Below, piece after piece: positions 6,970 to 62,650 of a DNA stretch of 64,000 bases (the first letter of the stretch is position 1; every line of letters starts with the position of its first letter). The notes under the pieces were generated by a model that was not told the origin of the DNA, ran no database searches, and worked only from the letters and a program-made list of their open reading frames with translations. Position numbers and translations under genes: made by a program. Source of the stretch: a virus; IMG/VR virus record IMGVR_UViG_3300033273_000658, positions 1 to 64,000 of that record; one strand, given 5' to 3'.

Positions 6970-7358
6970 AAAGTAAAGACCCAAATTATGCCGTAAAGGT
7001 TGAGAAAGCCATAACAGAAAAGTATGGCGAAGAAACAGTCCAACATCCGAAGAAAGGATGGAACGACGAGAAAGAGAAAGAGTATCTCAACGACCTCAAA
7101 GGATTCTACAAGTACGAAGAGTCTGGATTGAATGAAGAACAAGAAATAAACGGAGTTTTTATACCAAACAAACTAATTACGAAGAATTCTAAACGTTCTT
7201 GTCCTGTTTGTAATGTTTATTCATTTAAATCAAACGATGATGTATACATGTCAAAATTTGATTGCTGTGAAAAGTGTTATATTCAATTTATAGAAGGACG
7301 TGAAGAGCGTTGGAAAACAGGATGGAGACCAAATGAAACTAACAACACAAAGACTTAA
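6966..7358 (+). CDS. Hypothetical protein with C-terminal Zn-finger-like motif
   Basis: CPVC...CCEKC; translationally coupled. Confidence 0.6.
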   Translation: MKSKDPNYAVKVEKAITEKYGEETVQHPKKGWNDEKEKEYLNDLKGFYKYEESGLNEEQEINGVFIPNKLITKNSKRSCPVCNVYSFKSNDDVYMSKFDCCEKCYIQFIEGREERWKTGWRPNETNNTKT

Positions 7359-7665
7359 GAAACTTATTCGTGAAGAACTAGAAAAAATGAATGAAGGCGT
7401 TGATGATCTTATTCCCGAATTAGAAGAAATAAAATCCTATGCCATAGACGAGTTGCTCATGGATGTTGGCACAATACAATATGCAGAGATTTTACCTTTA
7501 CTCTCCAATCCTGAAGAGGACACAGAGGCTGATTTGTATGTAAAGTACATGGATGATGGCACATATACGTGTCAATATTATGACTACATGGGAGGAAAGA
7601 AAACTGCTTGCCCAACAAAAGATGATGTAAAGACATGGCTAGCTAGCCATAAAAAAGAGGATTAA
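7333..7665 (+). CDS. Leader-motif protein (putative internal head protein)
   Basis: GGAG then ATG 7333; MKLTTQRLKKLIREELEKMNE. Confidence 0.7.
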   Translation: MKLTTQRLKKLIREELEKMNEGVDDLIPELEEIKSYAIDELLMDVGTIQYAEILPLLSNPEEDTEADLYVKYMDDGTYTCQYYDYMGGKKTACPTKDDVKTWLASHKKED

Positions 7666-7668
7666 ATT

Positions 7669-8232
7669 ATGGCTGAATCAACAACATTAGAAATTATACA
7701 AGGACTATCACAAGCGGCAGCAAATGCTTACGATGGCGTTCATGACGAGAGATTTTCTCTTGACGGACAAGTTCGTAAGGTAGGTCTTAAGAGAGAAGAA
7801 GGGTGTCCTATTATGGATAAGAGAGTAAACGATGGATTTTCTGTTAAGTTTTACGGAAATAAAATCTGTATCAATTATCAATCGGACATTCAACTTCGTG
7901 ACATCCATGGATCAAAAGATTTTGAAGGCGACATCGTTCGTCAAATTGAAGAAGTGAAAAAATTTCTTCAAAAAGAATACAAAGCGATTACCGGTAAATC
8001 TGTCACGCTTACAGCAGACGGAGAACCAAAGGTTATTGCACAATCAACCTCTCGTGTTCGTTCATTTGTACAAGCTTATCAACATTATAAAATCAGTGGT
8101 GTGAAAGAAGAACCTATTCTTGATCCTGCTGTTGAGAACAGTCGTTCAATAACACGAAAGTTTTTGGAGCAAGTAAAAGCTGCGAAACGACCAACTAACG
8201 AATTCATTAAGAAAGGAGACAATGAAAAATGA
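7669..8232 (+). CDS. Hypothetical protein
   Basis: GAGG RBS, 187-aa ORF in an operon-like run. Confidence 0.7.
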   Translation: MAESTTLEIIQGLSQAAANAYDGVHDERFSLDGQVRKVGLKREEGCPIMDKRVNDGFSVKFYGNKICINYQSDIQLRDIHGSKDFEGDIVRQIEEVKKFLQKEYKAITGKSVTLTADGEPKVIAQSTSRVRSFVQAYQHYKISGVKEEPILDPAVENSRSITRKFLEQVKAAKRPTNEFIKKGDNEK

Positions 8233-8864
8233 AATTAACAACAGCAAACTTAAGACAACTGATTAAAGAAGAGCTTGAAGCAGTAATCGCCGAGGCTAAT
8301 TCCGCTGACATCGATATAAGCCGACAAAATTTATTAGATAGAAAACTCGCAGGAGAATTTGACTACCTTGGAGGAGAAGCAGATTTTATGAATCGGTACA
8401 ACAAACTAGCCCCCAAAGGAAGAACAGGAGAGCCTGGTGTTGATGGGCATGAAGTAATGAATAATAAAGCAAAAGCCAAACGAGCAGCGCAGGCCCAAGC
8501 TGCACAGGATGCACAAGATTACAAAGATGCCAAAGGAAGATACGAAAAATCGGTTGCTGATTATATAAAGAGAGGAGATAAGCTCTCAAATGACATAAAA
8601 GGTGCTTCCAGCGAACAGAAAACAAAACTTGCACAAGTTTATAATGAAATGTTCCCAGGAGCAGGCAAGGCTATAGGGTCGCCAAAAGCAGACCCAGCTA
8701 GGATTGCTCAACAGATGGCTGATACATTTAGTGATCCGAGTTTTTTTAGAGATAATGAAAACTTAAACATGTTTGTAGATTTTGAGATAGCAGCTAAAAA
8801 GGTCCTTAATCCCACAGCAAAAAAGAAGCCTGGATTTTTTAGTCGCTTTTTCAAAGAAGAATAA
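8229..8864 (+). CDS. Leader-motif protein (putative internal head protein)
   Basis: MKLTTANLRQLIKEELEAVIAE. Confidence 0.7.
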   Translation: MKLTTANLRQLIKEELEAVIAEANSADIDISRQNLLDRKLAGEFDYLGGEADFMNRYNKLAPKGRTGEPGVDGHEVMNNKAKAKRAAQAQAAQDAQDYKDAKGRYEKSVADYIKRGDKLSNDIKGASSEQKTKLAQVYNEMFPGAGKAIGSPKADPARIAQQMADTFSDPSFFRDNENLNMFVDFEIAAKKVLNPTAKKKPGFFSRFFKEE

Positions 8865-10460: not shown

Positions 10461-12428
10461 ATGGCTAAGAAAAATAAAAATTTAGGGAAGAATCCCTATA
10501 ATCCGGAGAATGGTCTTTTTCGTTCATTAACAAGATTGTTTTCTGGTCCAATTACCCAAAGAAGAACACAACAAGGTCGTGCATTGAGAAGACGACACTT
10601 AGATACATACGCTTCTCGTTTCACATCAGCTTCTGGTAAACAGTTCAAGAAACAAGAATACAATCCCATGAACATCATGACAGTTAACATGATTTCAAAT
10701 AGAAACAGAGCGGAACGTTATGTTGATTTTGATCAAATGGAGTATACACCAGAATGTGCATCTTCGTTGGACATCTATGCAGATGAAATGACAACACATT
10801 CATCCTTACAATCAATGCTCAGAATTAAATGTCCTAATGATGAGATTAAAACTATTCTTGATAATCTTTACCATAATGTATTGAATATTGAACATAATTT
10901 ATTCGGCTGGTGTAGAACCATGTGTAAGTATGGAGATCTTTTTCTTTACTTAGACATTGAAGAAGCTATTGGAGTTCGTGCATGTATTGGGCTTCCTCCA
11001 CAAGAGATTGAAAGACTTGAAGGAGAAGATGAGACAAATCCCAATTATGTTCAATTTCAATGGAACTCAGCTGGTATGACACTAGAAAACTGGCAGATGG
11101 CACATTTTAGAATACTTGGCAATGATAAGCATGCCCCCTATGGGACATCTGTCCTAGAACCAGCAAGAAGAATTTGGAGACAACTTACTCTCCTTGAAGA
11201 CGCTATGATGGCATACCGAATCGTACGTGCTCCGGAGAGACGCGTATTTAAAATCGATGTCGGCAATATTCCTCCACAAGATGTCGAACAATACATGCAG
11301 AAGGTTATGACTCAAATGAAGCGTCATCAAGTCGTGGACCCCAAAACAGGTCGACTTGATTTAAGATACAATCCATTGTCAATTGAAGAAGATTATTATA
11401 TTCCTATTCGCGGTACCTCAAACACGGATATTGTTTCTCTCAAAGGTGGAGAAATGACAGCGCAAATTGAAGATGTGAAGTATCTCAGAGATAAGTTGTT
11501 CTCCGCACTTAAAATCCCTCAATCCTATCTCACAATGGGAGAAGGTGCATCTGAGGATAAAACAACACTTGCACAAAAAGACATTAGATTCGCAAGGACA
11601 ATCCAAAGACTACAAAGAGTTGTTATTGCTGAACTTGAGAAGATTGGGATCGTTCACCTATTCACAATGGGTTTCCGCAACGATGATCTTCTTTGTTTTA
11701 AATTACAGTTAAATAATCCATCAAAGATCGCTGAACTTCAAGAGCTTGAACATTGGGATAAAAAATTCTCTGTTGCTGGAAATGCAACTGAGGGATACTT
11801 CTCACGTCGCTGGGTTGCAGAGAACCTGTTTGGTCTTTCCGATGAGGAATTTGTTCGTATGCAACGTGAAATGTTCTATGATAGAAAATTCTCATCCAGC
11901 CTAGAATCCGTTGGTCAAGCCGCAGAAGGCGGTGGAGCCGGAGGCGGTGGAGGTTTAGACCTTGGAGGAGGTTCATCCGGAGGTGGACTTGACTTAGGCG
12001 GTGATACCGGTGGAGATACTGGCGGTGGATTAGATTTAGGTGGTGACGCAGGAGACAAGGCTGCTGGGGACAAGAGCCCTGGTGCCGAAGGGGGTGATCA
12101 AAAAGACGATGTTCTCCTAGCCGAACCACCAGCTAAACGTGATGATAAGAAGAAAAAGACCAGAGGTCCTTATAAACGTCATCAAACATCATATTCAAAA
12201 GGTGGTAGAAAAAAACAAATGAAAAACCAAGCTACCGGAGAGTATGGAAATACATACAGAACGACTTTCCAAGGTAAATCAGGCTTTGGTGGTTTAGATT
12301 CTATTGCTCGTGGAATTACAGAGAGTAAAGAAACTGAAGAAGAGAAACTATTTAAAACATCAAAGCAAGTTGATAACTTGATTGAAAGTCTATTGAAAAA
12401 GGTGAAAGAAGATGAAACTAACTCTTGA
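10461..12428 (+). CDS. Portal protein (T4 gp20-like) with Gly-rich C-terminal extension
   Basis: LEDAMMAYRIVRAPERRVFKIDVGN, EDYYIP, EDVKYLRDKLFSALKIP. Confidence 0.93.
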   Translation: MAKKNKNLGKNPYNPENGLFRSLTRLFSGPITQRRTQQGRALRRRHLDTYASRFTSASGKQFKKQEYNPMNIMTVNMISNRNRAERYVDFDQMEYTPECASSLDIYADEMTTHSSLQSMLRIKCPNDEIKTILDNLYHNVLNIEHNLFGWCRTMCKYGDLFLYLDIEEAIGVRACIGLPPQEIERLEGEDETNPNYVQFQWNSAGMTLENWQMAHFRILGNDKHAPYGTSVLEPARRIWRQLTLLEDAMMAYRIVRAPERRVFKIDVGNIPPQDVEQYMQKVMTQMKRHQVVDPKTGRLDLRYNPLSIEEDYYIPIRGTSNTDIVSLKGGEMTAQIEDVKYLRDKLFSALKIPQSYLTMGEGASEDKTTLAQKDIRFARTIQRLQRVVIAELEKIGIVHLFTMGFRNDDLLCFKLQLNNPSKIAELQELEHWDKKFSVAGNATEGYFSRRWVAENLFGLSDEEFVRMQREMFYDRKFSSSLESVGQAAEGGGAGGGGGLDLGGGSSGGGLDLGGDTGGDTGGGLDLGGDAGDKAAGDKSPGAEGGDQKDDVLLAEPPAKRDDKKKKTRGPYKRHQTSYSKGGRKKQMKNQATGEYGNTYRTTFQGKSGFGGLDSIARGITESKETEEEKLFKTSKQVDNLIESLLKKVKEDETNS

Positions 12429-12684
12429 AAGAATAAAAAAATTGATCAAAGAAGAACTTAATAATCTTAATGAAAACAAAGAAGATGAAGGAGTTGAAAA
12501 TTTGACTGATGAAGAGATCAAAGCAATAAGAAACGGTCTTTTTAATAAATACCTAGAAGGAATGAGACCAGAAGAAAGAGAAATAAATAAGGAAGAAGCA
12601 AAAGACATGTCAATACGTACACAAGAAGGAAGCAATGCTGTAGAATTCGAATATAAAGGAAAAAAATATTACGGACAAATTTAA
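12412..12684 (+). CDS. Leader-motif protein
   Basis: MKLTLERIKKLIKEELNNLNE. Confidence 0.7.
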   Translation: MKLTLERIKKLIKEELNNLNENKEDEGVENLTDEEIKAIRNGLFNKYLEGMRPEEREINKEEAKDMSIRTQEGSNAVEFEYKGKKYYGQI

Positions 12685-14523: not shown

Positions 14524-14730
14524 ATGAAATTAACAGCTGAAAAACTTAAAAAATTAATTAAAGAAGAAATGGAAAATCTTTCTGAGCAACCAAGCGATTC
14601 GGATGAACTTATGATGAATCTACAAAGAGCTCTTGAGGCTGCAACAGATCAAGCAAAAGATGGAGAAGTAAACTCAAAGATTAACGAGCTTTTAGAAATA
14701 GTTAGAAAATACAACACTGGTGAGAAATAA
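14524..14730 (+). CDS. Leader-motif protein
   Basis: MKLTAEKLKKLIKEEMENLSE; GGAG RBS. Confidence 0.7.
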   Translation: MKLTAEKLKKLIKEEMENLSEQPSDSDELMMNLQRALEAATDQAKDGEVNSKINELLEIVRKYNTGEK

Positions 14731-14732
14731 TT

Positions 14733-15350
14733 ATGCCTAAACAACTCTTAACAGAATTTTACGCTCTTTGCAAAGATGGTGTTTGTTTAGATCTCTTATC
14801 AGAATCTGAAAGACGAGAGGTTGTCAAAGAAGGTGCAACGTATCTAACCGGTCGCCTTCAGACTGCTGATAAAAAGAATGGAAATGGAAGAACCTATCCA
14901 TACAAAGTTCTCAAGAGAGAGATTGAGAATTATAAGAAACTTGTCGCAGATAAAAGATCTTGCGGAGAACTTGATCATCCGGATGACTCTGTCATCAACC
15001 TTAAGAATGTTTCTCACATTGTCACTGACATTTGGTGGGAAGGTAAAGATGTGATGGGGAAGATCAAGGTTCTCACAACTCCTTCTGGTCGTATTTTAAA
15101 AGACCTAATCAATGATGGTGTTAAGCTTGGTATTTCTTCTCGTGGCCTTGGCTCTGTCAAAGAGTCCATGGGTGGACTAACAGAAGTTCAAGATGATTTT
15201 GAACTTATCTGTTTTGACATCGTTTCAGAGCCATCAACGCCAAATGCATTTGTTTACCCAAAAGGTAAAGGAACAATGTATGAGAACAAAATCAACGAAG
15301 CAAAGCAAAACATCGTTGATAATCTGTTTAAAAAAATACTTGAGGATTAA
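14733..15350 (+). CDS. Prohead core protease (T4 gp21-like)
   Basis: NGNGRTY, GELDHP, VSH, TPSG, GISSRGLGS, DIVSEPS. Confidence 0.93.
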   Translation: MPKQLLTEFYALCKDGVCLDLLSESERREVVKEGATYLTGRLQTADKKNGNGRTYPYKVLKREIENYKKLVADKRSCGELDHPDDSVINLKNVSHIVTDIWWEGKDVMGKIKVLTTPSGRILKDLINDGVKLGISSRGLGSVKESMGGLTEVQDDFELICFDIVSEPSTPNAFVYPKGKGTMYENKINEAKQNIVDNLFKKILED

Positions 15351-15353
15351 ATT

Positions 15354-16046
15354 ATGAACTTGTCTTCTAGAGAATTAATTTCACTAATAAGAGAAGAGTT
15401 AAGTAATTTTCTAGATGAAATGAAATATGATTCTCGCAAAGATGTTGAAGGGTATGTTGATGCTGATGAACTAAAAGGTAAGCGCGTTTGGACACATACC
15501 AATAGGACACATAGAAACCAAGGTAAAAATGGAATGATTGGAATCTATGGCACAACTAGTTCTGGTGCGAGAACAGGCAACCCTTTATATTATACAAATT
15601 GTATCCGATTAGGACCTCCAGTTGTTTTCCAAACCAGCGAATCTGGTGTTGAAAGAATTCAAAAAACTGGAAAGAGGACTTTGGTCGCCGGTACTTCTGG
15701 TAAAGTCCTAGAAACCAACGAAGGAGAAAATCTATCAGGTTTTCTTCCGTTTACTTTTAGTCCTTTTGGAGATAAAAAGTTTTTTCACTTAGAAAGTGAT
15801 CCCAATAAAAAATTAGTTTCCGGAGATGAAGTTTACTTCCAAGCCTCTGAGGATGGTAAATATACATCGCTAGTTAAAAATCCTGTATTTCAAAATGACT
15901 CGGAAAACAAACAACTCTATTTACCTTATGAACCAGATGAAATGAAAAACATCACCAAGCTATCTCCTAAAGAAAAAAGAAGATACAATAGAAAACCAAA
16001 ACAAACGCCAAATAAAATACAATTACCATTAGAATTTGAGGATTAA
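15354..16046 (+). CDS. Leader-motif protein with unknown globular cargo
   Basis: MNLSSRELISLIREELSNFLDE followed by an unrelated domain. Confidence 0.7.
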   Translation: MNLSSRELISLIREELSNFLDEMKYDSRKDVEGYVDADELKGKRVWTHTNRTHRNQGKNGMIGIYGTTSSGARTGNPLYYTNCIRLGPPVVFQTSESGVERIQKTGKRTLVAGTSGKVLETNEGENLSGFLPFTFSPFGDKKFFHLESDPNKKLVSGDEVYFQASEDGKYTSLVKNPVFQNDSENKQLYLPYEPDEMKNITKLSPKEKRRYNRKPKQTPNKIQLPLEFED

Positions 16047-16463
16047 ATGAAAAAGAACGAACTAAAGAAAATTTTAAAGCCGCTAATTAAAGAGTGCATC
16101 AAAGAGGTAATCTTTGAAGAAGGCGCTCTTTCTACTATCATTACTGAGGTTGTAAAGGGCACTTCCGGATCTCAACAGATTGTTGAAACAAGAGCGCAAG
16201 AACCCAAGCAAGACTTTGCAAGACAAGAGAGAAAGATGCAAGAGGCAAAAGAACGAAAGCGTAAACTTCTAGATTCAATTGGAAAAGATGCATACAACGG
16301 GGTTAACCTATTTGAAGGAACAACACCTACGTCAGCTCCTTCTTCTACTCAAGGTCAGGGGCCACTTGATAGTGTTGCTCCTCATGATCCAGGTGTTGAC
16401 ATCTCTGGTATTTTCTCTGGTCATTCTGCAAAGATTTGGCAAAAACTATCAGGAAAGGATTAA
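16047..16463 (+). CDS. Leader-motif-variant head-module protein
   Basis: MKKNELKKILKPLIKECIKEVIFEE. Confidence 0.65.
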   Translation: MKKNELKKILKPLIKECIKEVIFEEGALSTIITEVVKGTSGSQQIVETRAQEPKQDFARQERKMQEAKERKRKLLDSIGKDAYNGVNLFEGTTPTSAPSSTQGQGPLDSVAPHDPGVDISGIFSGHSAKIWQKLSGKD

Positions 16464-16678
16464 TGGCTGCTAATCATACAGTTCGACCTCGCAGAAATGA
16501 AAGCGGGGAACGTTTAATAAGAAGGTTTACAAGAAAGATCAAGAAGCTTGGTCTTATCGAAGAGATAAAAGAAAGACGACATCACAAGAAGCGTTCTGAT
16601 GTCAAAAGACGTGCAAAGCAACGTGCAATTGCAAGGCGGAAGAAAAAAGAGCAAAAAGAGAAGAAAAATACTAATTAA
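16463..16678 (+). CDS. rpsU: Phage-encoded ribosomal protein bS21
   Basis: NESGERLIRRFTRKIKKLGLIEEIKERRHHKKRSDVKRRAK fits the bS21 pattern E..e.alrrFkr....g...e.r.r..y.KPs; TAATG start. Confidence 0.8.
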   Translation: MAANHTVRPRRNESGERLIRRFTRKIKKLGLIEEIKERRHHKKRSDVKRRAKQRAIARRKKKEQKEKKNTN

Positions 16679-54339: not shown

Positions 54340-55290
54340 ATGAAAAGGGTTATGATTATTGATGGTCTCAACATGTTTTTGAGGTCATACATCAACGTTC
54401 CGTCAATGGATAAGCACGGAGCACCGAACGGAGGAACATACGGCTTCATGAAGTCGCTCCAAAAAATTTGCGGGATGTTCAGTCCAGATCAGGTTATTAT
54501 CTGTTGGGATGGACAAGGAGGCTCGCAAAAGCGCAAGCAAATGAACAGTGACTACAAAGCAGGTAGAGCACCTGTTCGTTTCAATCGGAGACTTATTGAC
54601 TTGTCACCAGAAGAAGCAGACAAGAATAAATACAATCAACAGTACCGTTTGATGGAGTATCTTAACGATCTTCCCATCATTCAAACAATGATTGATTATA
54701 TCGAAGCAGACGATTGTATTTCTTACATTTGTCAACATAAGAAATACGAAGATTGGGAGAAGCTGATAGTCTCCTCAGATAAGGATTTTTTCCAGCTAAT
54801 TTCAAAGAAAACCAAGCTGTATCGTCCGATACAAGACAAGGTGGTAGATTACCCTACCTTGCTTGAAGAACACAAAATTCACCCCAAAAATTTCGCATTA
54901 GCGAGAAGTTTGGTTGGAGATAAATCGGACAATCTTCCGGGTGTTCCGAGAGTCGGTTTGAAGACAGTCGCTGGTAAATTTACATTTCTAAAAGAAGACA
55001 AACAGTATGAAGTTGAAGACATTATGCAGCATTGTGAATCTTTAGATAAAATGCTTAAGGTTCACGAAAACATTTTAGAACATTCTCATCTAGTTGAGAA
55101 GAACTTTGAAATAATGCAACTATATAGTCCACTCATTTCTAATCTACATAAAAAGCAAATAAATTTTTCTTTGGAAGAGTTTGAGCCTGAGATGAATAAA
55201 CTAGAAATCATGAAAAAGCTCGTAGCAGACGGCATTAATGCAGGAAACTTTAATGTTTTGTTTAATGCAATGAAAAAAATAACTTTATAA
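54340..55290 (+). CDS. 5'-3' exonuclease / flap endonuclease (Pol I N-domain, T4 RNase H-like)
   Basis: IIDGLN, WDG, YKAGR, EADD, SSDKDF.Q, GDKSDNLPGV..VG.KT; GGAGG before ATG 54340. Confidence 0.9.
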   Translation: MKRVMIIDGLNMFLRSYINVPSMDKHGAPNGGTYGFMKSLQKICGMFSPDQVIICWDGQGGSQKRKQMNSDYKAGRAPVRFNRRLIDLSPEEADKNKYNQQYRLMEYLNDLPIIQTMIDYIEADDCISYICQHKKYEDWEKLIVSSDKDFFQLISKKTKLYRPIQDKVVDYPTLLEEHKIHPKNFALARSLVGDKSDNLPGVPRVGLKTVAGKFTFLKEDKQYEVEDIMQHCESLDKMLKVHENILEHSHLVEKNFEIMQLYSPLISNLHKKQINFSLEEFEPEMNKLEIMKKLVADGINAGNFNVLFNAMKKITL

Positions 55291-55300
55291 AAATAAAAAC

Positions 55301-55328
55301 TTGACAGACTTTTAAATTATGTTATAAT
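55301..55328 (+). promoter_or_regulatory. sigma70-type promoter
   Basis: TTGACA(55301)-16 nt-TATAAT(55323) with TG. Confidence 0.75.
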
Positions 55329-55349
55329 ACTTATAACATCGGAGGAAAC

Positions 55350-56708
55350 ATGAATAACAAAACGGAAACGTTTCAAAGGTTTGGCAAAGCCTTTCAAGAA
55401 AAATTCTGCCACATTATGCTTTCGGACAGACCATTTTGCGATCAAGTTGCAGAGGTTTTGAACGTGGAGTTTTTGGATTATGAATACCTTCGTGTATTTA
55501 CCCAGATTCTCTTTGAGCATAGAACAAAGTATAAGGTACACCCTTCTTATGAGATCATGGAATCAAGAATCAGGACAGAATGTAACAAGTATACAAAAGC
55601 ACTCAAAGAACAGCTTTTGCAATTCTACGCATCCATTCTTGCCACTGACCGTATTGACAACTCACAGTACATTAAGGATAGTTCAATCGACTTCTGTCGC
55701 AAACAAGTGCTTAAGGGCGCTATGATGAAGTCAGTTAAACTTATTAAGTCATCGTCATTCGATGAAATCCAGTCTGTTATTGAGGAAGCCTTGAAGCTAG
55801 GAACCGACAACAACTTTGGTCATGACTTCATCAAAGACTTTGAGGAACGATATACAATTACATCGCGAGATCCTGTTTCCACAGGTTTTGAACGCATTGA
55901 TGAGATTTGTAAGGGCGGTCTTGGTAAGTCTGAGTTAGGAGTTGTTATTGCACCAACAGGTGCTGGAAAGTCAATGGTATTGGTTCACTTAGGTTCCGAA
56001 GCGCTAAAGCAAGGCAAGACTGTTGTACACTACACATTGGAGTTACAAGATACGGTTGTTGGTAATCGTTATGATTCTTGCATTTCGGGTGTACCTTTGG
56101 GAGATCTCTTTCATAACAAACAGCAGGTTCTTTACAAAATTAAAGACATTCCTGGTCAACTTATTATAAAAGAGTATCCCACAAAGTCTGCATCAACAGA
56201 GACTATCAAGCAACACATCGAACGTCTTAAAAAACGTGGTATTGAGCCTGATATGATCATTGTTGATTATGCTGATCTTCTGCGACCTGTTCGTTCAACT
56301 GCTGAGAAGCGCTTTGATCTTGAGAACACTTATGAAGAGCTGCGAGCAATTGCTCAAATCTATAAGTGCCCTGTTTGGACTGCTTCCCAGACAAACCGTT
56401 CCGGTCTCAATGCAGAAGTTATCACCATGGAAGCTATTTCAGAAGCATTCAATAAGTGTTTCGTTGCAGACTTTATTTGTTCTTTGTCTCGTACTGTTCA
56501 AGACAAGCAAGCTAATAAAGGCCGCATGTTTATTGCAAAGAACAGAAATGGTCCCGATGGCCTTATATTCCCAGCGTTTGTTGACTGGTCGAATGTAAAC
56601 ATGAAGGTTTTAAACCAAGAAAGTGGAGAGTCTATCGCTGATGTTATCAAAGACTCAGATAGAAATACTCTAGACTTTCTTAAAGAAAAATATAAAAAAC
56701 ATAAATGA
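55350..56708 (+). CDS. Replicative DnaB-like helicase (T4 gp41-like)
   Basis: APTGAGKS, TLE, IKEYPT, IVDYADL, TASQTNR, KNRNG. Confidence 0.92.
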   Translation: MNNKTETFQRFGKAFQEKFCHIMLSDRPFCDQVAEVLNVEFLDYEYLRVFTQILFEHRTKYKVHPSYEIMESRIRTECNKYTKALKEQLLQFYASILATDRIDNSQYIKDSSIDFCRKQVLKGAMMKSVKLIKSSSFDEIQSVIEEALKLGTDNNFGHDFIKDFEERYTITSRDPVSTGFERIDEICKGGLGKSELGVVIAPTGAGKSMVLVHLGSEALKQGKTVVHYTLELQDTVVGNRYDSCISGVPLGDLFHNKQQVLYKIKDIPGQLIIKEYPTKSASTETIKQHIERLKKRGIEPDMIIVDYADLLRPVRSTAEKRFDLENTYEELRAIAQIYKCPVWTASQTNRSGLNAEVITMEAISEAFNKCFVADFICSLSRTVQDKQANKGRMFIAKNRNGPDGLIFPAFVDWSNVNMKVLNQESGESIADVIKDSDRNTLDFLKEKYKKHK

Positions 56709-56717
56709 GGATTTAAA

Positions 56718-58691
56718 ATGTTAAAATTAAAAGATGTAAATGTAAGAAAGTTTCGACTTTCTGAGCAGTTTATTGCTCAATATAAAGAAGCCGAGGTTCC
56801 TTGGGGACCTGTCGGCTATGTTACGTTTAAGCGTACATATGCTCGTCGTTTGAGCGAGTTTGAAGAAGGTGCTGAAGGAACTGAAGAATGGTGGCAAACA
56901 TGTCGCCGTGTTATCGAAGGAATGTTTGATATTCAGAAACGTCACGCTTTCATGATCGGAATTGAATGGAATGATGCTAAAGCTCAGAAAACAGCTAAAG
57001 AAGCGTATGATCGCCTGTTCAATCTTAAGTGGACACCACCCGGTCGTGGTCTTTGGATGATGGGCACCAAGTTTATCATGGAGAGAACAGGCGCAGGTCT
57101 TTTCAACTGTGCTTTCCGCTCTACACGAGACATTGCTAATAAAGGTGGATATCTCTTTGCTTGGATGATGGATGCTCTCATGGTTGGCATCGGTGTCGGC
57201 TTTGATACACTTGGAGCTAAAACTTTTTCTGTAAAAGAACCACAGTGGACAAATGATACACTACTTATTGAGGATTCTCGTGAAGGTTGGGTTAATAGTG
57301 TTCATATCCTATTGGATGGTTACATACTTGGTAAAAAAGTTCCCAACTTTGATTACTCCGCTATTCGTGGAAAAGGTGAACCAATCCGTGGTTTTGGTGG
57401 AACATCTTCCGGTCCTGATCCACTCATTGAATTGCACAATAATTTGAGAGAACTTCTCGGTCCAAAAGTAGGAGAGTTAATTGAGTCTGTTGATATTGTT
57501 GACATTGAGAACCTTATTGGTCGTTGTGTCGTTGCTGGTAATGTACGCCGTTCTGCTGCACTTGCAATCGGTGGGTATGATGATAAAGATTATCTTACGA
57601 TGAAGAATGATCAAGAGAAGCTTTATCACCATCGTTGGGGATCTAACAACTCCTTTGAAGCAAAGGTTGGTATGGACTACACTTGGCATGCTGCTCAATC
57701 TGCAATCAATGGAGAACCTGGTTATATTTGGTTGGATAATGCCCGTAATTACGGACGTATGAAGGACGGAAAGCGTTCTGATGACCTTAAGGTGATGGGG
57801 TTCAACCCTTGCGTGGAACAACAGCTTGAAGACGCAGAACTTTGTTGTTTGGTGGAAACATTCCCTGCCAAGCACGATACATACGAAGACTATGTCAAGA
57901 CTCTTGAAATTGCTTATATGTATGGAAAGACTGTAACTCTTATCAACACTCATTGGCCTGAGACAAATGCTATCATGCTAAAGAATCGCCGTATTGGTCT
58001 TTCTCAATCTGGTGTTATCCAAGCGTTCAACAAGTTTGGAAGACGCACAATGATTAACTGGTGTGATGATGCTTATAAGCATGTTGAAGAACTTGATACA
58101 AAATACTCAGACTGGCTCTGTGTTCCACGCTCTGTCCGTATGACTTCTATCAAGCCATCAGGCACAGTGTCTCTTCTTAACGGTTCAACACCGGGTATTC
58201 ACTATCCAGAGGATGAGTACTACATCCGCCGTATACGTTTTGCTGAGACCTCTGACATTCTTCCAACACTTGAAAAAGCTGGTTATAAGATTGAAAAAGA
58301 TTCTTACTCTCCAAACACTATGTGTGTTGAGTTTCCTGTTCATGAGCCGTTCTTTAAGAAAGGAAAGCGAGAGATTACAATGTGGGAGCAACTTGAGATT
58401 GCTGCGCAGTATCAATATTATTGGGCTGACAACTCTGTTTCTATCACCGTGACTTTCCAAGAGCACGAAGCAGAAGAGATCAAGGATGCACTTGAAATGT
58501 ATGAAGCGAGACTAAAAGCTGTTTCGTTCCTTAAATATCAAGAGACCGGATACAAACAAGCACCTTATGAGCCAATCACTAAAGAAGAATATGAGAAGAT
58601 GATTGTAGGCATCACTCCTGTTCAAAAGATTGAGACATCCGAAAGTGGTGTAGGATCCAAGTTCTGTTCAAACGACACATGCGAATTATAG
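56718..58691 (+). CDS. nrdJ: Class II (B12-dependent) ribonucleotide reductase, monomeric type
   Basis: RTY.R, PPGRGLW, NC, GNVRRSA, NPCVE, IKPSGTVS, C-terminal C....C. Confidence 0.92.
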   Translation: MLKLKDVNVRKFRLSEQFIAQYKEAEVPWGPVGYVTFKRTYARRLSEFEEGAEGTEEWWQTCRRVIEGMFDIQKRHAFMIGIEWNDAKAQKTAKEAYDRLFNLKWTPPGRGLWMMGTKFIMERTGAGLFNCAFRSTRDIANKGGYLFAWMMDALMVGIGVGFDTLGAKTFSVKEPQWTNDTLLIEDSREGWVNSVHILLDGYILGKKVPNFDYSAIRGKGEPIRGFGGTSSGPDPLIELHNNLRELLGPKVGELIESVDIVDIENLIGRCVVAGNVRRSAALAIGGYDDKDYLTMKNDQEKLYHHRWGSNNSFEAKVGMDYTWHAAQSAINGEPGYIWLDNARNYGRMKDGKRSDDLKVMGFNPCVEQQLEDAELCCLVETFPAKHDTYEDYVKTLEIAYMYGKTVTLINTHWPETNAIMLKNRRIGLSQSGVIQAFNKFGRRTMINWCDDAYKHVEELDTKYSDWLCVPRSVRMTSIKPSGTVSLLNGSTPGIHYPEDEYYIRRIRFAETSDILPTLEKAGYKIEKDSYSPNTMCVEFPVHEPFFKKGKREITMWEQLEIAAQYQYYWADNSVSITVTFQEHEAEEIKDALEMYEARLKAVSFLKYQETGYKQAPYEPITKEEYEKMIVGITPVQKIETSESGVGSKFCSNDTCEL

Positions 58692-58699
58692 GAGGCAAA

Positions 58700-58966
58700 A
58701 TGAAACCATTTAACAGACACATACTTATCAAACTAGTTGAGAAGAAACAAGAAAAGAAAGAATCCTTGATTGTTCTTCCAACTGATTATAAAAAACCAGA
58801 GTCGCCACATCAACTTGGTGTGGTGTTGGAGACGGCAGAGGATTGTTCCCTGCCGGTCTCTGCAGGAGATACCGTTGTTTTTGAGAAAAGAATGATAAAT
58901 AAGATACAAATAGATGAAGAAACCTACTATTTAGTGTTAGAAAATTACATTTATGGGAGAATTTAA
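58700..58966 (+). CDS. groES: GroES-like co-chaperonin
   Basis: MKPFNRHILI, IVLP, GDTVVF, Y.V.E..I.G; GGAGG before ATG 58700. Confidence 0.75.
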   Translation: MKPFNRHILIKLVEKKQEKKESLIVLPTDYKKPESPHQLGVVLETAEDCSLPVSAGDTVVFEKRMINKIQIDEETYYLVLENYIYGRI

Positions 58967-59767
58967 ATGAAACTTACAGCTGAAAAATTAAAATCTTTGA
59001 TTAAAGAAGTCAAGTCTGAAAAAAATAGTGATTCCATGCTTCTTAGTTCACCAAACGATAAAAAAATAATTGTGCAAGAGGGCAAGCACAGCTTTTCTCT
59101 TCAGAGGCTCAACGAAACCACAATGACTGCGATACAAGGTAAATACATGGAGAATGGGTTTGTTGTTTTAACTTCAGACCGCAGTTGTCATGCAGAGCTT
59201 GGTATACCTTATGGAGAACCCTGTCCGGAAAAAGAAGAATACTTTTTCCAACAAAATAACATTGAAAATCGTGAAGTTTTAAAAAAATGGGTTAGATCCA
59301 AAGGCTATGGTTATACACCAGTTTATGGAGGGTTCAAAGAAGATGTTAAAGATGAAGAAGGAAATGTTGTCGGTAAAGTAGATTCACCAGAACCAGAACA
59401 TGCACTTTTGATAATGGCAAGAAATGAAAAAGATTCTACAAACCATTTATCTCTTAAAGATTTTGCAAAAGAAATTTGCGAAGTTTTTAATCAAGATGCT
59501 TTTTTCTACAAGCCGCCAAATTCTGAGGATAAAAATGCATACTTCATTGATAAAGACGGTAAACCATCTCAAACATTTTCGAACTTTGTGTTCGGAGATT
59601 TGCAACAAGACTATTTCACACAGCTAGCTAAAGGAAGAGAAAAATTACAACCAGAAAAAAGATTTTCTGCTATTCCAGAGGCTTTGTATGTTCCCAAACC
59701 ACCACTGTCAGCTGTCGAAGCTAGAGAAAGACGAGGAGAGATTTTCATAACTGTGAGGGGTAAATGA
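58967..59767 (+). CDS. Leader-motif protein with SAM-lyase-like (T3 SAMase/DUF3293-like) domain
   Basis: MKLTAEKLKSLIKE leader; FVVLTSDRS...N......L...VR...GGFKE...EHALLI...AKEICEVFNQDAFFYK. Confidence 0.55.
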   Translation: MKLTAEKLKSLIKEVKSEKNSDSMLLSSPNDKKIIVQEGKHSFSLQRLNETTMTAIQGKYMENGFVVLTSDRSCHAELGIPYGEPCPEKEEYFFQQNNIENREVLKKWVRSKGYGYTPVYGGFKEDVKDEEGNVVGKVDSPEPEHALLIMARNEKDSTNHLSLKDFAKEICEVFNQDAFFYKPPNSEDKNAYFIDKDGKPSQTFSNFVFGDLQQDYFTQLAKGREKLQPEKRFSAIPEALYVPKPPLSAVEARERRGEIFITVRGK

Positions 59768-60510
59768 TCAACTATGAAAAATCAATTGATCTCTATGGAG
59801 ATAACATCGGTAGGGTGGACTATGTTTCTCATATGGGTAGCGACCTTACCGTTGTTAATAGTGCTCGTGTCTCTTTTGGTACTACAAAATCAGAACTGGA
59901 TAAACGAGATAGGAAGCTTATCCGCTACCTTATTTCCCACAAGCACACTTCTACTTTGGAGCATTGTGTTGTTACCTATAAATTTACTGTCCCTTTATTC
60001 ATTCGTTCTCAACATCACCGTCACAGAACGTGGAGTTATAACGAAATTAGTAGACGATACACAGACAAAGAACTTCGGTTTTATTGTCCACGAGAATTTA
60101 GAACACAACACAAATCAAACAGACAAGCCTCAAACGTAGAAGAACTTATTGACCCCTTCCTGTGGCATGATGGAGAGTCTCAAATTATTCCTGCTTTCCA
60201 TCCACAGGCTTCTGAGGTATACCGAGAGCACTGCCAAAGTTCTTTGAACCTATTTCATGAACTAGTTAATAAAGGAGTGTGTAGAGAACAAGCAAGAGGC
60301 GTTTTACCACAAACACTTTACACAGAATATTATGGAACTTGCAATCTCAATAACCTTCTTAAATTTGTTTCTCTTCGTTTACATGATGGTGCACAATATG
60401 AAATACAAAAAGTCGCAGAAGCATGCTTGGAAATCGCCACCGACCTTTTCCCTGTCACAGTCAAAGCGTACAGAAATGCAACTGGTCACAGCGAAGTACA
60501 GCAAGGGTGA
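59764..60510 (+). CDS. thyX: Flavin-dependent thymidylate synthase
   Basis: SARVS, H.STLEH, RSQHHRHRTWSYNEISRRY, EQAR.VLP, AQYEI. Confidence 0.95.
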   Translation: MINYEKSIDLYGDNIGRVDYVSHMGSDLTVVNSARVSFGTTKSELDKRDRKLIRYLISHKHTSTLEHCVVTYKFTVPLFIRSQHHRHRTWSYNEISRRYTDKELRFYCPREFRTQHKSNRQASNVEELIDPFLWHDGESQIIPAFHPQASEVYREHCQSSLNLFHELVNKGVCREQARGVLPQTLYTEYYGTCNLNNLLKFVSLRLHDGAQYEIQKVAEACLEIATDLFPVTVKAYRNATGHSEVQQG

Positions 60511-60736
60511 TTTAGTAAATTTAAATACATTCGGTCTCATACTGAGATCAACAGGAAATCAAGCGAGGATCGGCATTGTTATGTCGCATCCTCGTAACTA
60601 TTATAAGGCTAACGCAGATCAAGAACTAATCTATTGGGTATATGACGTAGTAGTTGGAAACGAACTAATTATAGACGTACCTCAAGAATTTTTGATAAGG
60701 ATTAATAAAGATGAAAATGAAGAAGATCTTGACTGA
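60476..60736 (+). CDS. Small hypothetical protein (start uncertain)
   Basis: YSKGDLV...GIV beta-barrel-like pattern; the longer ORF start overlaps thyX heavily. Confidence 0.5.
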   Translation: MQLVTAKYSKGDLVNLNTFGLILRSTGNQARIGIVMSHPRNYYKANADQELIYWVYDVVVGNELIIDVPQEFLIRINKDENEEDLD

Positions 60737-61808
60737 GTGGCGCAAGTTTATTAAAGAAGGCGTTTCAAACGAAGATATAAGAAACAAAGAAATACAAAGA
60801 ATTAATAATTCTAGAATACCAGATAAAGAAGCACAAAAACAAATTGCTTCTATCTACCTGCCAATGTCTTTGATGGGTCATATCCCAAGAGGAGCAAAAG
60901 AGTTTTATGAAAATAAAAGAACATCGGCTAGAGATTTATTAATGATGCTTGATGTCCTAGGAGATGATGTTCATGAACACGAACTACTAAACCGACAAAC
61001 AACAGACTCAGAGTATTTTACAATTGAAACTGTTGGAGGGTTAGCTAAAGGAAGTGCAATAGAGAAGATAAGACTTAGAAGCAAAGTGACAGAAGCATCA
61101 GAAGGTATTTTTGACAGTACACAAGATCTTAAAAAAAGAATATTCACAGCAGAAGATATGATAAGTCAAAAAGATTTTGATTTTTCGAAACTTTCTGGTG
61201 AGTTTGAGCTTGGCCCGTCTAAAGGAGGCTATCACAAAGGGCCTGATAGTGGCAATGCCGGCATTCAGATCCCAAAAGATAAAATGTCTCCTGCCGAGAT
61301 AGCCGAATGGGAAAAAATGATGGATGAGTTTTCGAAACATCATGCGGTTGAGTTATATTGGAACGGCCCAAAAGATAGAGAATTTTATTTAATGCTTCAA
61401 CGTACTCATCAAGAACGAAAAAAGTTTTATGAATACATGTACAAACTTTGGTATGAAAAAACAGGTCCCGAAAACTACTTCACTAATTTATTTTATGATG
61501 CAACATTCGATGAAGGTTACGAGGAAGCGCTTCAACACCTTATTGATAGTATGACTGTTGTAGATGAAAGGCCAGATCAGCAAAAAGCTCTTGATGCGAC
61601 AGCTGAAATAGTGTTGAGTCTTAAAGAAGAATTTGATAATTTAATTGCAGGGACTTCATTACTCACAGGCAAAGATCTGGAAATACACCTAGAAACTATA
61701 GAAATCGTTAAAGAAAAAATGAAAAAAGCCAGAAAGGATTTCCGTGTAGCTCAAAGAAAATTAAGAGATTACCAGAGGGAATTAAGAAGAACTCAGAGTT
61801 CTAAATGA
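60711..61808 (+). CDS. Leader-variant protein of unknown function
   Basis: MKMKKILTEWRKFIKE N-terminus; ACTAATTA at 60664. Confidence 0.65.
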   Translation: MKMKKILTEWRKFIKEGVSNEDIRNKEIQRINNSRIPDKEAQKQIASIYLPMSLMGHIPRGAKEFYENKRTSARDLLMMLDVLGDDVHEHELLNRQTTDSEYFTIETVGGLAKGSAIEKIRLRSKVTEASEGIFDSTQDLKKRIFTAEDMISQKDFDFSKLSGEFELGPSKGGYHKGPDSGNAGIQIPKDKMSPAEIAEWEKMMDEFSKHHAVELYWNGPKDREFYLMLQRTHQERKKFYEYMYKLWYEKTGPENYFTNLFYDATFDEGYEEALQHLIDSMTVVDERPDQQKALDATAEIVLSLKEEFDNLIAGTSLLTGKDLEIHLETIEIVKEKMKKARKDFRVAQRKLRDYQRELRRTQSSK

Positions 61809-62650
61809 ATCTAATATTGCCGAAGATAATAACAGGTGGCTCTCTTGAATCCTTGTTCTATGCTTACATCCATGAGACACCGATAGTTCTTACACAACCC
61901 TATGTTCCATTCGAACTTGATATGGTTGAAGATAATTCTTTCTTTGAGCTGCTCGGATATACAGCAGAAATGCCGTTAACCAAAGTTCAAGTGTGGGATC
62001 GACTTGTATTTGTACTCTCAATGGCCGGTCTCGTTATGATGCCCAACAACGTGAGAAATGTCCGAGAAGAAGGGAATAAAATTATCTTCTCATTAAATGA
62101 CAATTCTCGCTTCATTATAGCCTATGAGAGAAAGGTGTCTTTTGATAAACACCTAGATGGCGAAGTTGATGTTTACGATTGGTTCGACATCAGATCAGGA
62201 GCAAAAACAGAATTACAGGAGATAAATGATTCAGAAGATGACCTCGTTCATAAAGTTGTTTTTTATGATTCACGAAGAAAGGGAACAGGAGGTAAAGGCT
62301 TCAAAGACCTTGTCGCTGTATCTCGCATGCAAACGTCGGAGCTACACGAATATGAAAATAGTGAGGGTTACGTCCGCCTTAAAACAATCAAGATGATGAA
62401 AGATCAAGGCATGAGAGGAAGACCGAATGGCTATAACAAGAAAGGCAAACAACAATTTTATGCTCTCAAAATAGAGCACATGCATCGTGAGATTATAAAA
62501 AGATACGAACCAAAATTCACCATGCAAGAAGCAATAAATCAAATAAGAGAAGAGAAGGAGATATGGAAACTTACGAAAAAACTATTACATCAAAAGCAAA
62601 TTTCCATCTTGCGGGAATCGTCCCGGTTGCCGGTGGACATACTAGTTTAA
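61805..62650 (+). CDS. Hypothetical protein (degenerate Rossmann-like start)
   Basis: IITGGSLESLFYA; ATGA coupling. Confidence 0.6.
   Translation: MNLILPKIITGGSLESLFYAYIHETPIVLTQPYVPFELDMVEDNSFFELLGYTAEMPLTKVQVWDRLVFVLSMAGLVMMPNNVRNVREEGNKIIFSLNDNSRFIIAYERKVSFDKHLDGEVDVYDWFDIRSGAKTELQEINDSEDDLVHKVVFYDSRRKGTGGKGFKDLVAVSRMQTSELHEYENSEGYVRLKTIKMMKDQGMRGRPNGYNKKGKQQFYALKIEHMHREIIKRYEPKFTMQEAINQIREEKEIWKLTKKLLHQKQISILRESSRLPVDILV

Follow-up and report, generated by a model that had tools for sequence, protein, structure and literature searches.

An open reading frame (ORF) of an uncultured T4-like marine phage encodes a protein whose identification as a lyase of S-adenosylmethionine (SAM) is well supported by sequence comparison and by structure prediction. 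The ORF begins at position 58967 of the window, by which we mean the whole 64,000-nucleotide stretch of DNA analyzed here, the first 64 kb of IMG/VR record IMGVR_UViG_3300033273_000658 (a single-contig virus of 141,005 bp and 37.5% G+C). SAM lyases are known as early-expressed counter-defense enzymes. It is quite possible, though by no means assured, that the SAM-lyase-family protein of this phage is produced as a precursor with an amphipathic leader, which is found on at least eleven otherwise unrelated proteins, and that, once packaged in the head, it is injected along with the DNA. The phage, which is not a cyanophage, has a capsid protein of the gp23 type whose nearest counterparts are found in Flavobacterium phage immuto, Microcystis phage Mel-JY01, and Rhodothermus phage RM378. 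Every convincing gene is carried on the plus strand.

Evidence for a SAM-lyase-like enzyme

The ORF and the parts of its product that bear on enzymatic identity are as follows.

58967..59767 (stop codon included), + strand: ORF of 266 amino acids (aa), precursor of the SAM-lyase-like protein
59117..59764, + strand: conserved domain, aa 51-266, made up of a T3-SAMase-like core (about aa 52-242) and a family-specific C-terminal motif
59327..59341, + strand: GGFKE (G121, F123, E125), counterpart of G56-V-Y58-T-E60 of Svi3-3 and of GCYRE of T3
59396..59398, + strand: E144, by alignment the counterpart of Glu69 of Svi3-3 (a key catalytic or substrate-binding residue), conserved at 90% or more in alignment A2
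59492..59494, + strand: Q176 in NQD, counterpart of Gln104 of Svi3-3 and of the Gln of T3 EQD
59717..59746, + strand: EARERRGEIF, family-specific C-terminal motif, invariant in alignment A1, with R255 and E258 conserved at 90% or more in alignment A2

The first-pass annotation of this DNA had singled out five blocks of sequence in the ORF and had compared them with blocks of the SAM lyase of phage T3. All five are present in the product of the ORF: GFVVLTSDRS (aa 64-73), NIENREVLKKWVR (aa 98-110), GGFKE (aa 121-125), PEHALLI (aa 143-149), and AKEICEVFNQDAFFYK (aa 167-182). The T3 blocks had been given correctly too, as the translation of T3 gp0.3 taken from the T3 record reads FYVLVSAFRS, NMSRHR, GCYRE, EEKTVRV, and ARLACNEWEQDCVLVYK, and an hhalign comparison of the family with T3 gp0.3 (E = 7e-4) showed the T3 blocks to be collinear with those of the ORF, all five of them.

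The family to which the protein belongs is large and divergent. An exhaustive search recovered 184 clusters at 50% identity (E <= 1e-3), so that the subfamily is at least of that size; its members are mostly 200-260 aa in length, and the matched part of the query extends over approximately residues 45-262. In alignment A2, which consists of 65 representatives of the family, the mean column identity is only 24%. Of these relatives, 37 matched the Pfam family PF23780 (S-AdoMet_lyase) on their own sequence (E <= 0.01; best, 7.8e-11), and the ORF protein itself matched it with an E value of 2.4e-5 and a score of 24.7 bits, the gathering cut-off being 28 bits. When the family profile was compared with the sequences in the PDB, the single match was Svi3-3, with a weak E value (1.4), and a phmmer search of the same sequences with the ORF protein alone returned no match. 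A tblastn search of 50,697 phage records with the ORF protein likewise returned no match; cultured phages were reached by way of two other members of the family.

The profile alignment pairs G121, F123, E144, and Q176 of the ORF protein with G56, Y58, E69, and Q104 of Svi3-3, in agreement with the annotation's remark that a Glu and a Gln are conserved. According to Guo et al. 2021 (PMC7877911), strict conservation in proven SAM lyases is limited to Gly56, Glu69, and Gln104 (in Svi3-3 numbering), and the E69Q substitution nearly abolishes the activity of Svi3-3 (PMC7877911). The counterparts G121, E144, and Q176 are each kept at 90% or more across A2, which, in a family with a mean identity of 24%, argues for a preserved active site. 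Taken with the PF23780 matches of the relatives and the hhalign match to T3 gp0.3, retention of these three residues supports the SAM-lyase-like identity that had been proposed. Tyr58 of Svi3-3 makes a cation-pi contact that stabilizes the sulfonium (PMC7877911), and its replacement by Phe causes a fivefold decrease in activity (about a fifth being kept) and a less stable trimer (PMC7877911). The residue at the position of F123 is Tyr in most members of the family. The S-AdoMet lyase family is also characterized by assembly into a homotrimer whose active sites are located where the subunits meet.

A structural match, which the annotation had suggested as a check, was found as well. The predicted structure of the ORF protein (predicted local distance difference test [pLDDT] score of 79) has a ferredoxin-like, PII-like fold that can be superposed on solved SAM lyases. 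The top Foldseek hits to the model were SAM lyases, though with a weak E value against the PDB (0.02), and VIA-align was used as a second look; matches to the model among the structures of BFVD include annotated SAM hydrolases.

The ORF protein differs from its best-known relatives in its architecture. The T3 gp0.3 SAM lyase (SAMase; PDB 7OCK, 8BB1), a protein of 152 aa without a leader, is the product of the first early gene and acts after its expression in the cell. Compared with T3 gp0.3 and Svi3-3 (PDB 6ZM9), the ORF protein, at 266 aa, has in addition a 14-aa leader, a linker, an extra N-terminal helix, and the C-terminal motif EARxRxGExF, and it has Phe where Svi3-3 has Tyr58.

Two further observations concern the superfamily at large. 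Seven of the 65 members of A2 matched DUF3293 (PF11697; best E = 2.7e-6), which raises the possibility that this domain family is a branch, bacterial or phage, of the SAM-lyase superfamily. Also, the BFVD matches include SAM-lyase-like domains that lie within very large virion or polyvalent proteins, such as a 1231-aa "structural protein" of Flavobacterium phage elemoC, a 1477-aa ART-PolyVal protein, and a 769-aa protein of cyanophage P-TIM40. Big proteins of this kind represent a second possible route by which a SAM-lyase-like domain is brought in with the particle. Under the names that we looked for, SAM hydrolases are not mentioned by Iyer et al. (2017) in their work on polyvalent proteins.

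A shared leader and candidate cleavage sites

The leader that the annotation had described at the start of the ORF is real: it recurs on 11 ORFs of the genome (starting at 7333, 8229, 12412, 14524, 15354, 58967, 65934, 106275, 106945, 111121, and 122243), all of which begin M(K/N)(L/I)(T/S/N)xxx(L/I)(K/R)x(L/I)IxE, and it is conserved as a peptide. Position 11 is encoded by six different Leu codons and position 12 by three Ile codons, so that codon choice is free, whereas M1, I12, and E14 are invariant in all 11 leaders. This pattern indicates selection on the peptide and not on the DNA or the RNA. In the predicted structure, residues 5-17 of the leader region form a helix. Five of the 11 leader genes adjoin the genes for the terminase, the T4-type portal (PF07230), and the prohead protease. 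The relevant features are listed below.

58967..59008, + strand: leader, aa 1-14 (MKLTAEKLKSLIKE), a predicted amphipathic helix ending I12-K13-E14
59009..59107, + strand: variable linker, aa 15-47 (pLDDT below 50 at aa 20-41)
59108..59116, + strand: L48-N49-E50, a family-wide (L/I)-x-E junction directly before the catalytic domain and a candidate prohead-protease site
14733..15350, + strand: gp21-type prohead core serine protease, the presumed processing enzyme (PF03420 Peptidase_S77, E = 6.3e-31; phrog_207, E = 5e-59)
7333..7665, + strand: leader-bearing protein of 110 aa, upstream of the terminase gene
8229..8864, + strand: leader-bearing protein of 211 aa, directly before the gene for the terminase large subunit
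12412..12684, + strand: leader-bearing acidic protein of 90 aa, overlapping the end of the portal gene and the positional counterpart of T4 gp67 (a prohead core protein)
14524..14730, + strand: leader-bearing protein of 68 aa, directly before the protease gene
15354..16046, + strand: leader-bearing protein of 230 aa, directly after the protease gene

Scans of ten proteins with Pfam and PHROG yielded no informative family for the eight leader-bearing proteins among them, and tblastn with the 230-aa leader protein (15354..16046) returned no match. Also in the head module, at 16463-16678 of the window, is an ORF whose small, basic product is similar to ribosomal protein bS21. A second type of leader, M..(I/L)(L/M)xxW(R/K)KF(I/V)xE, is present on three further unrelated proteins (window positions 60711-61808 and genome positions 117720-118274 and 118549-119283), and it also heads some SAM-lyase-family members of other phages (P0024, P0034, and P0043).

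The T4 prohead protease gp21 cuts after L/I-x-E (PMC9026906), and two sites in the ORF protein conform to this rule. One is the end of the leader, I12-K13-E14. The other is L48-N49-E50, part of the sequence RLNE that the annotation had reported and that is indeed located at aa 47-50. Among 153 family representatives, the position of E50 (P1) is occupied by Glu in 149 and the position of L48 (P3) by Leu or Ile in 140. There is no constraint on what stands between the two, and the junction is followed by T, A, S, or V. The linker that precedes this junction in the ORF protein is missing or unalignable in most members of the family, and the junction itself is kept whether 5 or 300 aa come before it.

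The N termini of some relatives are informative in this regard. The product of gene 48 (gp48) of Paraglaciecola virus GD1 starts MKTFSEFLGE and continues SGLSRI, so that a sequence near the capsid targeting sequence (CTS) of T4 ends at the junction. Other members of the family start MTYDIQKIVIAE or MDTKKWKRFLNE, the latter of which resembles the second leader type (..W(R/K)KF(I/V)xE). In all three cultured phages that have a homologue, Peptidase_S77 was matched above the Pfam cut-off; members of the family are present in the cultured phages Paraglaciecola virus GD1, Alishewanella phage Slickus01, and Synechococcus phage S-CREM2. We also considered the argument that L48-x-E50 must be purely structural, given its presence in leaderless homologues, and we dropped this argument because several of the short N termini are CTS-like and end exactly there. 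E50 may nevertheless have a structural or catalytic role. The existence of CTS-like N termini that end at the junction, along with the presence of Peptidase_S77 in the cultured carriers, makes (L/I)-x-E a good candidate for the maturation site.

The arrangement is reminiscent of the internal proteins IPI, IPII, and IPIII of T4, in which a short N-terminal propeptide ending I-x-E is likewise carried by unrelated cargo; a gp21-type protease, a T4-type portal, and a T4-type capsid are common to both phages. The CTS, which comprises the first ten residues of T4 IPIII, suffices to load foreign proteins into the head, and these then pass from the head into the host (PMC9026906, PMC3012670); we confirmed that the sequence of the CTS is MKTYQEFIAE. 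The leader of the present phage (14-22 aa; MKLTxxxLKxLIKEE(L)) is not similar to MKTYQEFIAE beyond the M-K at the start and the I-x-E at the end, and it is at least four residues longer. The cargo differs, too: T4 IPI* is an injected anti-restriction protein that inhibits a nuclease, whereas the cargo considered here would, as read from its sequence, be an enzyme that attacks a cofactor. We note separately that T4 gp67 (782-1024 of L017) contains DLIKEEK, which is like the leader core LIKEE; this may be a coincidence or a shared core-binding motif.

A precedent for a member of the family in the virion comes from the Synechococcus phage S-CREM2, whose gp6, designated "SAM hydrolase (virion protein)," was detected in 2023 by mass spectrometry in CsCl-purified virions, with 19 peptides (PMC10665884). 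The authors of that study suggested that gp6 is encapsidated and described no targeting signal (PMC10665884). We reached gp6 by using another member of the family as query. It is a distant homologue of the ORF protein, with residues 12-142 matching the family profile (hhalign probability 97.3%, E = 1.8e-11), and, like members of the family, it has an L-x-E followed by an SxLSRL helix; S-CREM2 is itself T4-like and has a Peptidase_S77 protease. Unlike the ORF protein, gp6 is 414 aa long, has a long basic C-terminal extension, and begins with a short MKDFDSFLEE in place of the MKLT leader. Its gene, moreover, is found among restriction- and methylation-related genes and not in a replication operon.

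A candidate promoter motif and transcription of the locus

The annotation had also noted the sequence ACTATTTA at 58926, inside the GroES-like gene just upstream of the ORF, and had taken it for a late promoter. The sequence is present at that position, as shown in the following list of features of the locus.

58926..58933, + strand: ACTATTTA, candidate phage late-type promoter (core CTATTTA), situated 41 nt upstream of the ATG and within the 3' end of the GroES-like gene
58679-58966, + strand: Cpn10/GroES-like gene (PF00166, E = 1.5e-11)
58955..58960, + strand: Shine-Dalgarno-like GGGAGA, read from the sequence
55301..55328, + strand: perfect sigma70-type promoter (TTGACA, a 16-nt spacer with TG, and TATAAT) ahead of the DnaB-like gene, the probable early promoter of the operon

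The motif is strongly biased in its distribution. There are 17 copies of ACTATTTA on the plus strand and none on the minus strand, and for CTATTTA the corresponding numbers are 31 and 4. Sixteen of the 31 plus-strand copies of CTATTTA lie 10-70 nt before the start of a gene, as compared to an expectation of 9% (p = 2e-9), and the genes behind it include a scaffold-like gene (27612), the tail sheath gene (33611), the tube gene (36480), and two fiber-like genes. CTATTTA is present within 130 nt upstream of 6 of the 11 leader genes but of only 14 of the 203 other genes (Fisher p = 1e-4).

The motif is also conserved among relatives. In the orthologous marine contigs L002, L005, and L008 (50-80% protein identity), it is located at -41 or -45 within the GroES-like gene, and in L005 its codon phase has changed, with other residues encoded as a result; this indicates that the DNA motif itself is under selection. 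All three CTATTTA sites of L005 precede genes, two of which start with leader-like peptides. As an alternative, we considered the T4 late promoter, TATAAATA, and rejected it for this phage; there are three copies on the plus strand and six on the minus strand, with no plus-strand copy near the ORF. A candidate for a gp55-like late sigma factor (genome 137343-138029) matched phrog_234 with an E value of 0.0095, which is too weak to rely on.

The ORF is the fourth gene of an operon, the gene order around it being DnaB-like, ribonucleotide reductase (RNR), GroES-like, the SAM-lyase-like ORF, and ThyX. Its ATG comes directly after the TAA of the GroES-like gene, and the ThyX gene (PF02511) overlaps its stop codon. 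The sequence "tatgggaga," which includes the Shine-Dalgarno-like element, also precedes the orthologues of the ORF, and the placement of the ORF between the GroES-like gene and ThyX is kept in all orthologous contigs. A search of positions 55000-62000 for terminator-like sites found none. Given the sigma70-type promoter at 55301 and no terminator-like site before the ORF, early read-through is likely. CTATTTA is shared with structural genes and is kept upstream of the orthologues; the contrast that had been drawn with T3, of late as opposed to early expression, was too strong. The ORF is probably not expressed only late, and CTATTTA is putatively called "late" on account of its association with structural genes.

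Some other features of the locus and of the genome deserve mention. In the relatives L002 and L003 (5066-5668), a gene for the ClpP protease is located between the class II RNR and GroES-like genes, where the present genome has none, and in L005 the corresponding position is taken by a gene for an Hc1-like histone. In addition to the GroES-like protein (58679-58966), the phage apparently encodes a GroEL-like chaperonin (genome 77565-79139), judging from its N-terminal sequence. Finally, about 25 head-to-tail microgenes of 50-75 aa, starting MK(I/V)GDLV, are found at about 83000-90000 of the genome.

Proposed packaging into the head and alternative explanations

As we envision it, transcription of the ORF would probably start at its own CTATTTA late-type promoter and would probably also occur by read-through from the sigma70-type promoter, so that an early cytoplasmic pool of the protein is likely. 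The gp21-type protease would remove the leader at I12-K13-E14 and/or at L48-N49-E50, and a mature enzyme of about 25 kDa would remain in the head and enter the next host with the DNA. There it would cleave SAM to methylthioadenosine and homoserine lactone, and the loss of SAM would starve type I and type III restriction, the bacteriophage exclusion (BREX) system, and host methylation prior to any phage gene expression. Because it has the same leader and the same late-type motif as genes of the head module, the SAM-lyase-like protein would probably be in the head and be injected with the DNA. Targeting to the head can reasonably be inferred from four independent lines of evidence: the I-x-E leader, the gp21-type protease, the promoter motif of structural genes, and the virion homologue. 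More doubtful is the broader proposition that the whole subfamily of SAM-lyase-like proteins of about 200 residues consists of head-packaged, injected enzymes that are matured at (L/I)-x-E, and that the 14-22-residue leader and CTATTTA together mark a regulon of about 11 injected cargo proteins, with a loading tag distinct from the T4 CTS.

Several considerations weigh against an injected SAM lyase. With respect to enzymatic identity, the PF23780 score of the ORF protein falls under the gathering cut-off; Phe stands in place of the sulfonium-stabilizing Tyr in the ORF protein and its closest relatives; and some lyases of the same fold are specific for SAM-AMP and not for SAM (PMC12255297). With respect to packaging, the leader exceeds the T4 CTS in length and cannot be aligned with it, I-x-E is a motif of low information in a helix rich in Lys and Glu, and L48-x-E50 might be kept in the family for structural or catalytic reasons and not as a site of cleavage. 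With a pI of 5.4, the mature part is acidic, unlike the basic internal proteins of T4. Finally, the ORF is located in a conserved block for replication and nucleotide metabolism (RNR, GroES-like, ORF, ThyX), downstream of a perfect sigma70 promoter with no intervening terminator, as would befit an ordinary early cytoplasmic enzyme.

The last of these points lead to the main rival explanation, in which the protein is a SAM lyase that acts in the cytoplasm in the ordinary way, is expressed along with the genes for replication and nucleotide metabolism, and is left unpackaged, with a leader helix that serves some other role, such as oligomerization, recognition by a chaperonin or protease, or control of stability. 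The place of the gene in all orthologous contigs, the promoter at 55301, the translationally coupled start (TAA and then ATG), and the acidity of the mature part would all be in keeping with this view, as would the apparent encoding of both GroEL and GroES by the phage and the presence of ClpP next door in relatives. We nonetheless consider a purely cytoplasmic enzyme somewhat less likely than a packaged one, as it does not account for the position of five of the 11 leader genes within the head module, around the portal and protease genes, or for the enrichment of leader genes for a motif that is found before sheath, tube, and scaffold-like genes. Nor does it account for the invariant I-x-E at the end of the leader, as cut by a gp21-type protease, or for the fact that one member of the family is a published virion protein.

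Two other explanations take issue with the activity and not with the location of the protein. It is improbable, in our estimation, that it is a lyase of the same fold acting on another sulfonium compound, such as the type III CRISPR signal SAM-AMP or another SAM conjugate, although the N-terminal helix and the Arg-rich EARxRxGExF could then be seen as an extended binding site, and lyases with such specificity do exist. Far less probable still is a catalytically inactive, PII-like protein, whether with a structural or scaffolding role in the prohead core or with a regulatory role through ligand binding. The substitution of Phe for Tyr58, the proximity of the PII and CutA folds, and the fact that the leader proteins are mostly small, without recognized function, and encoded near head genes would be compatible with an inactive protein; the high conservation of G121, E144, and Q176 in so divergent a family and the retention of the Tyr in most of its members argue to the contrary.

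A virion-associated SAM hydrolase was already reported in 2023 (PMC10665884), and so the idea of an injected SAM-degrading enzyme is not new. What is new here is a type of leader that is common to eleven proteins, a CTATTTA promoter motif of its own, and a phage that is not a cyanophage. The virion homologue has been reported once and without a mechanism, and the leader, the protease motif, and the family-wide junction together provide a loading mechanism that can be tested. The same features suggest shipment of a SAM-lyase-like enzyme by many marine T4-like phages. The leader may be a new tag for the loading of proteins into phage heads, and the eleven-member set that bears it would comprise ten further candidates for injected proteins. 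If the proposal of an injected enzyme is correct, a pre-made SAM lyase would act before restriction or BREX could see the genome, which would change our view of the first seconds of infection.

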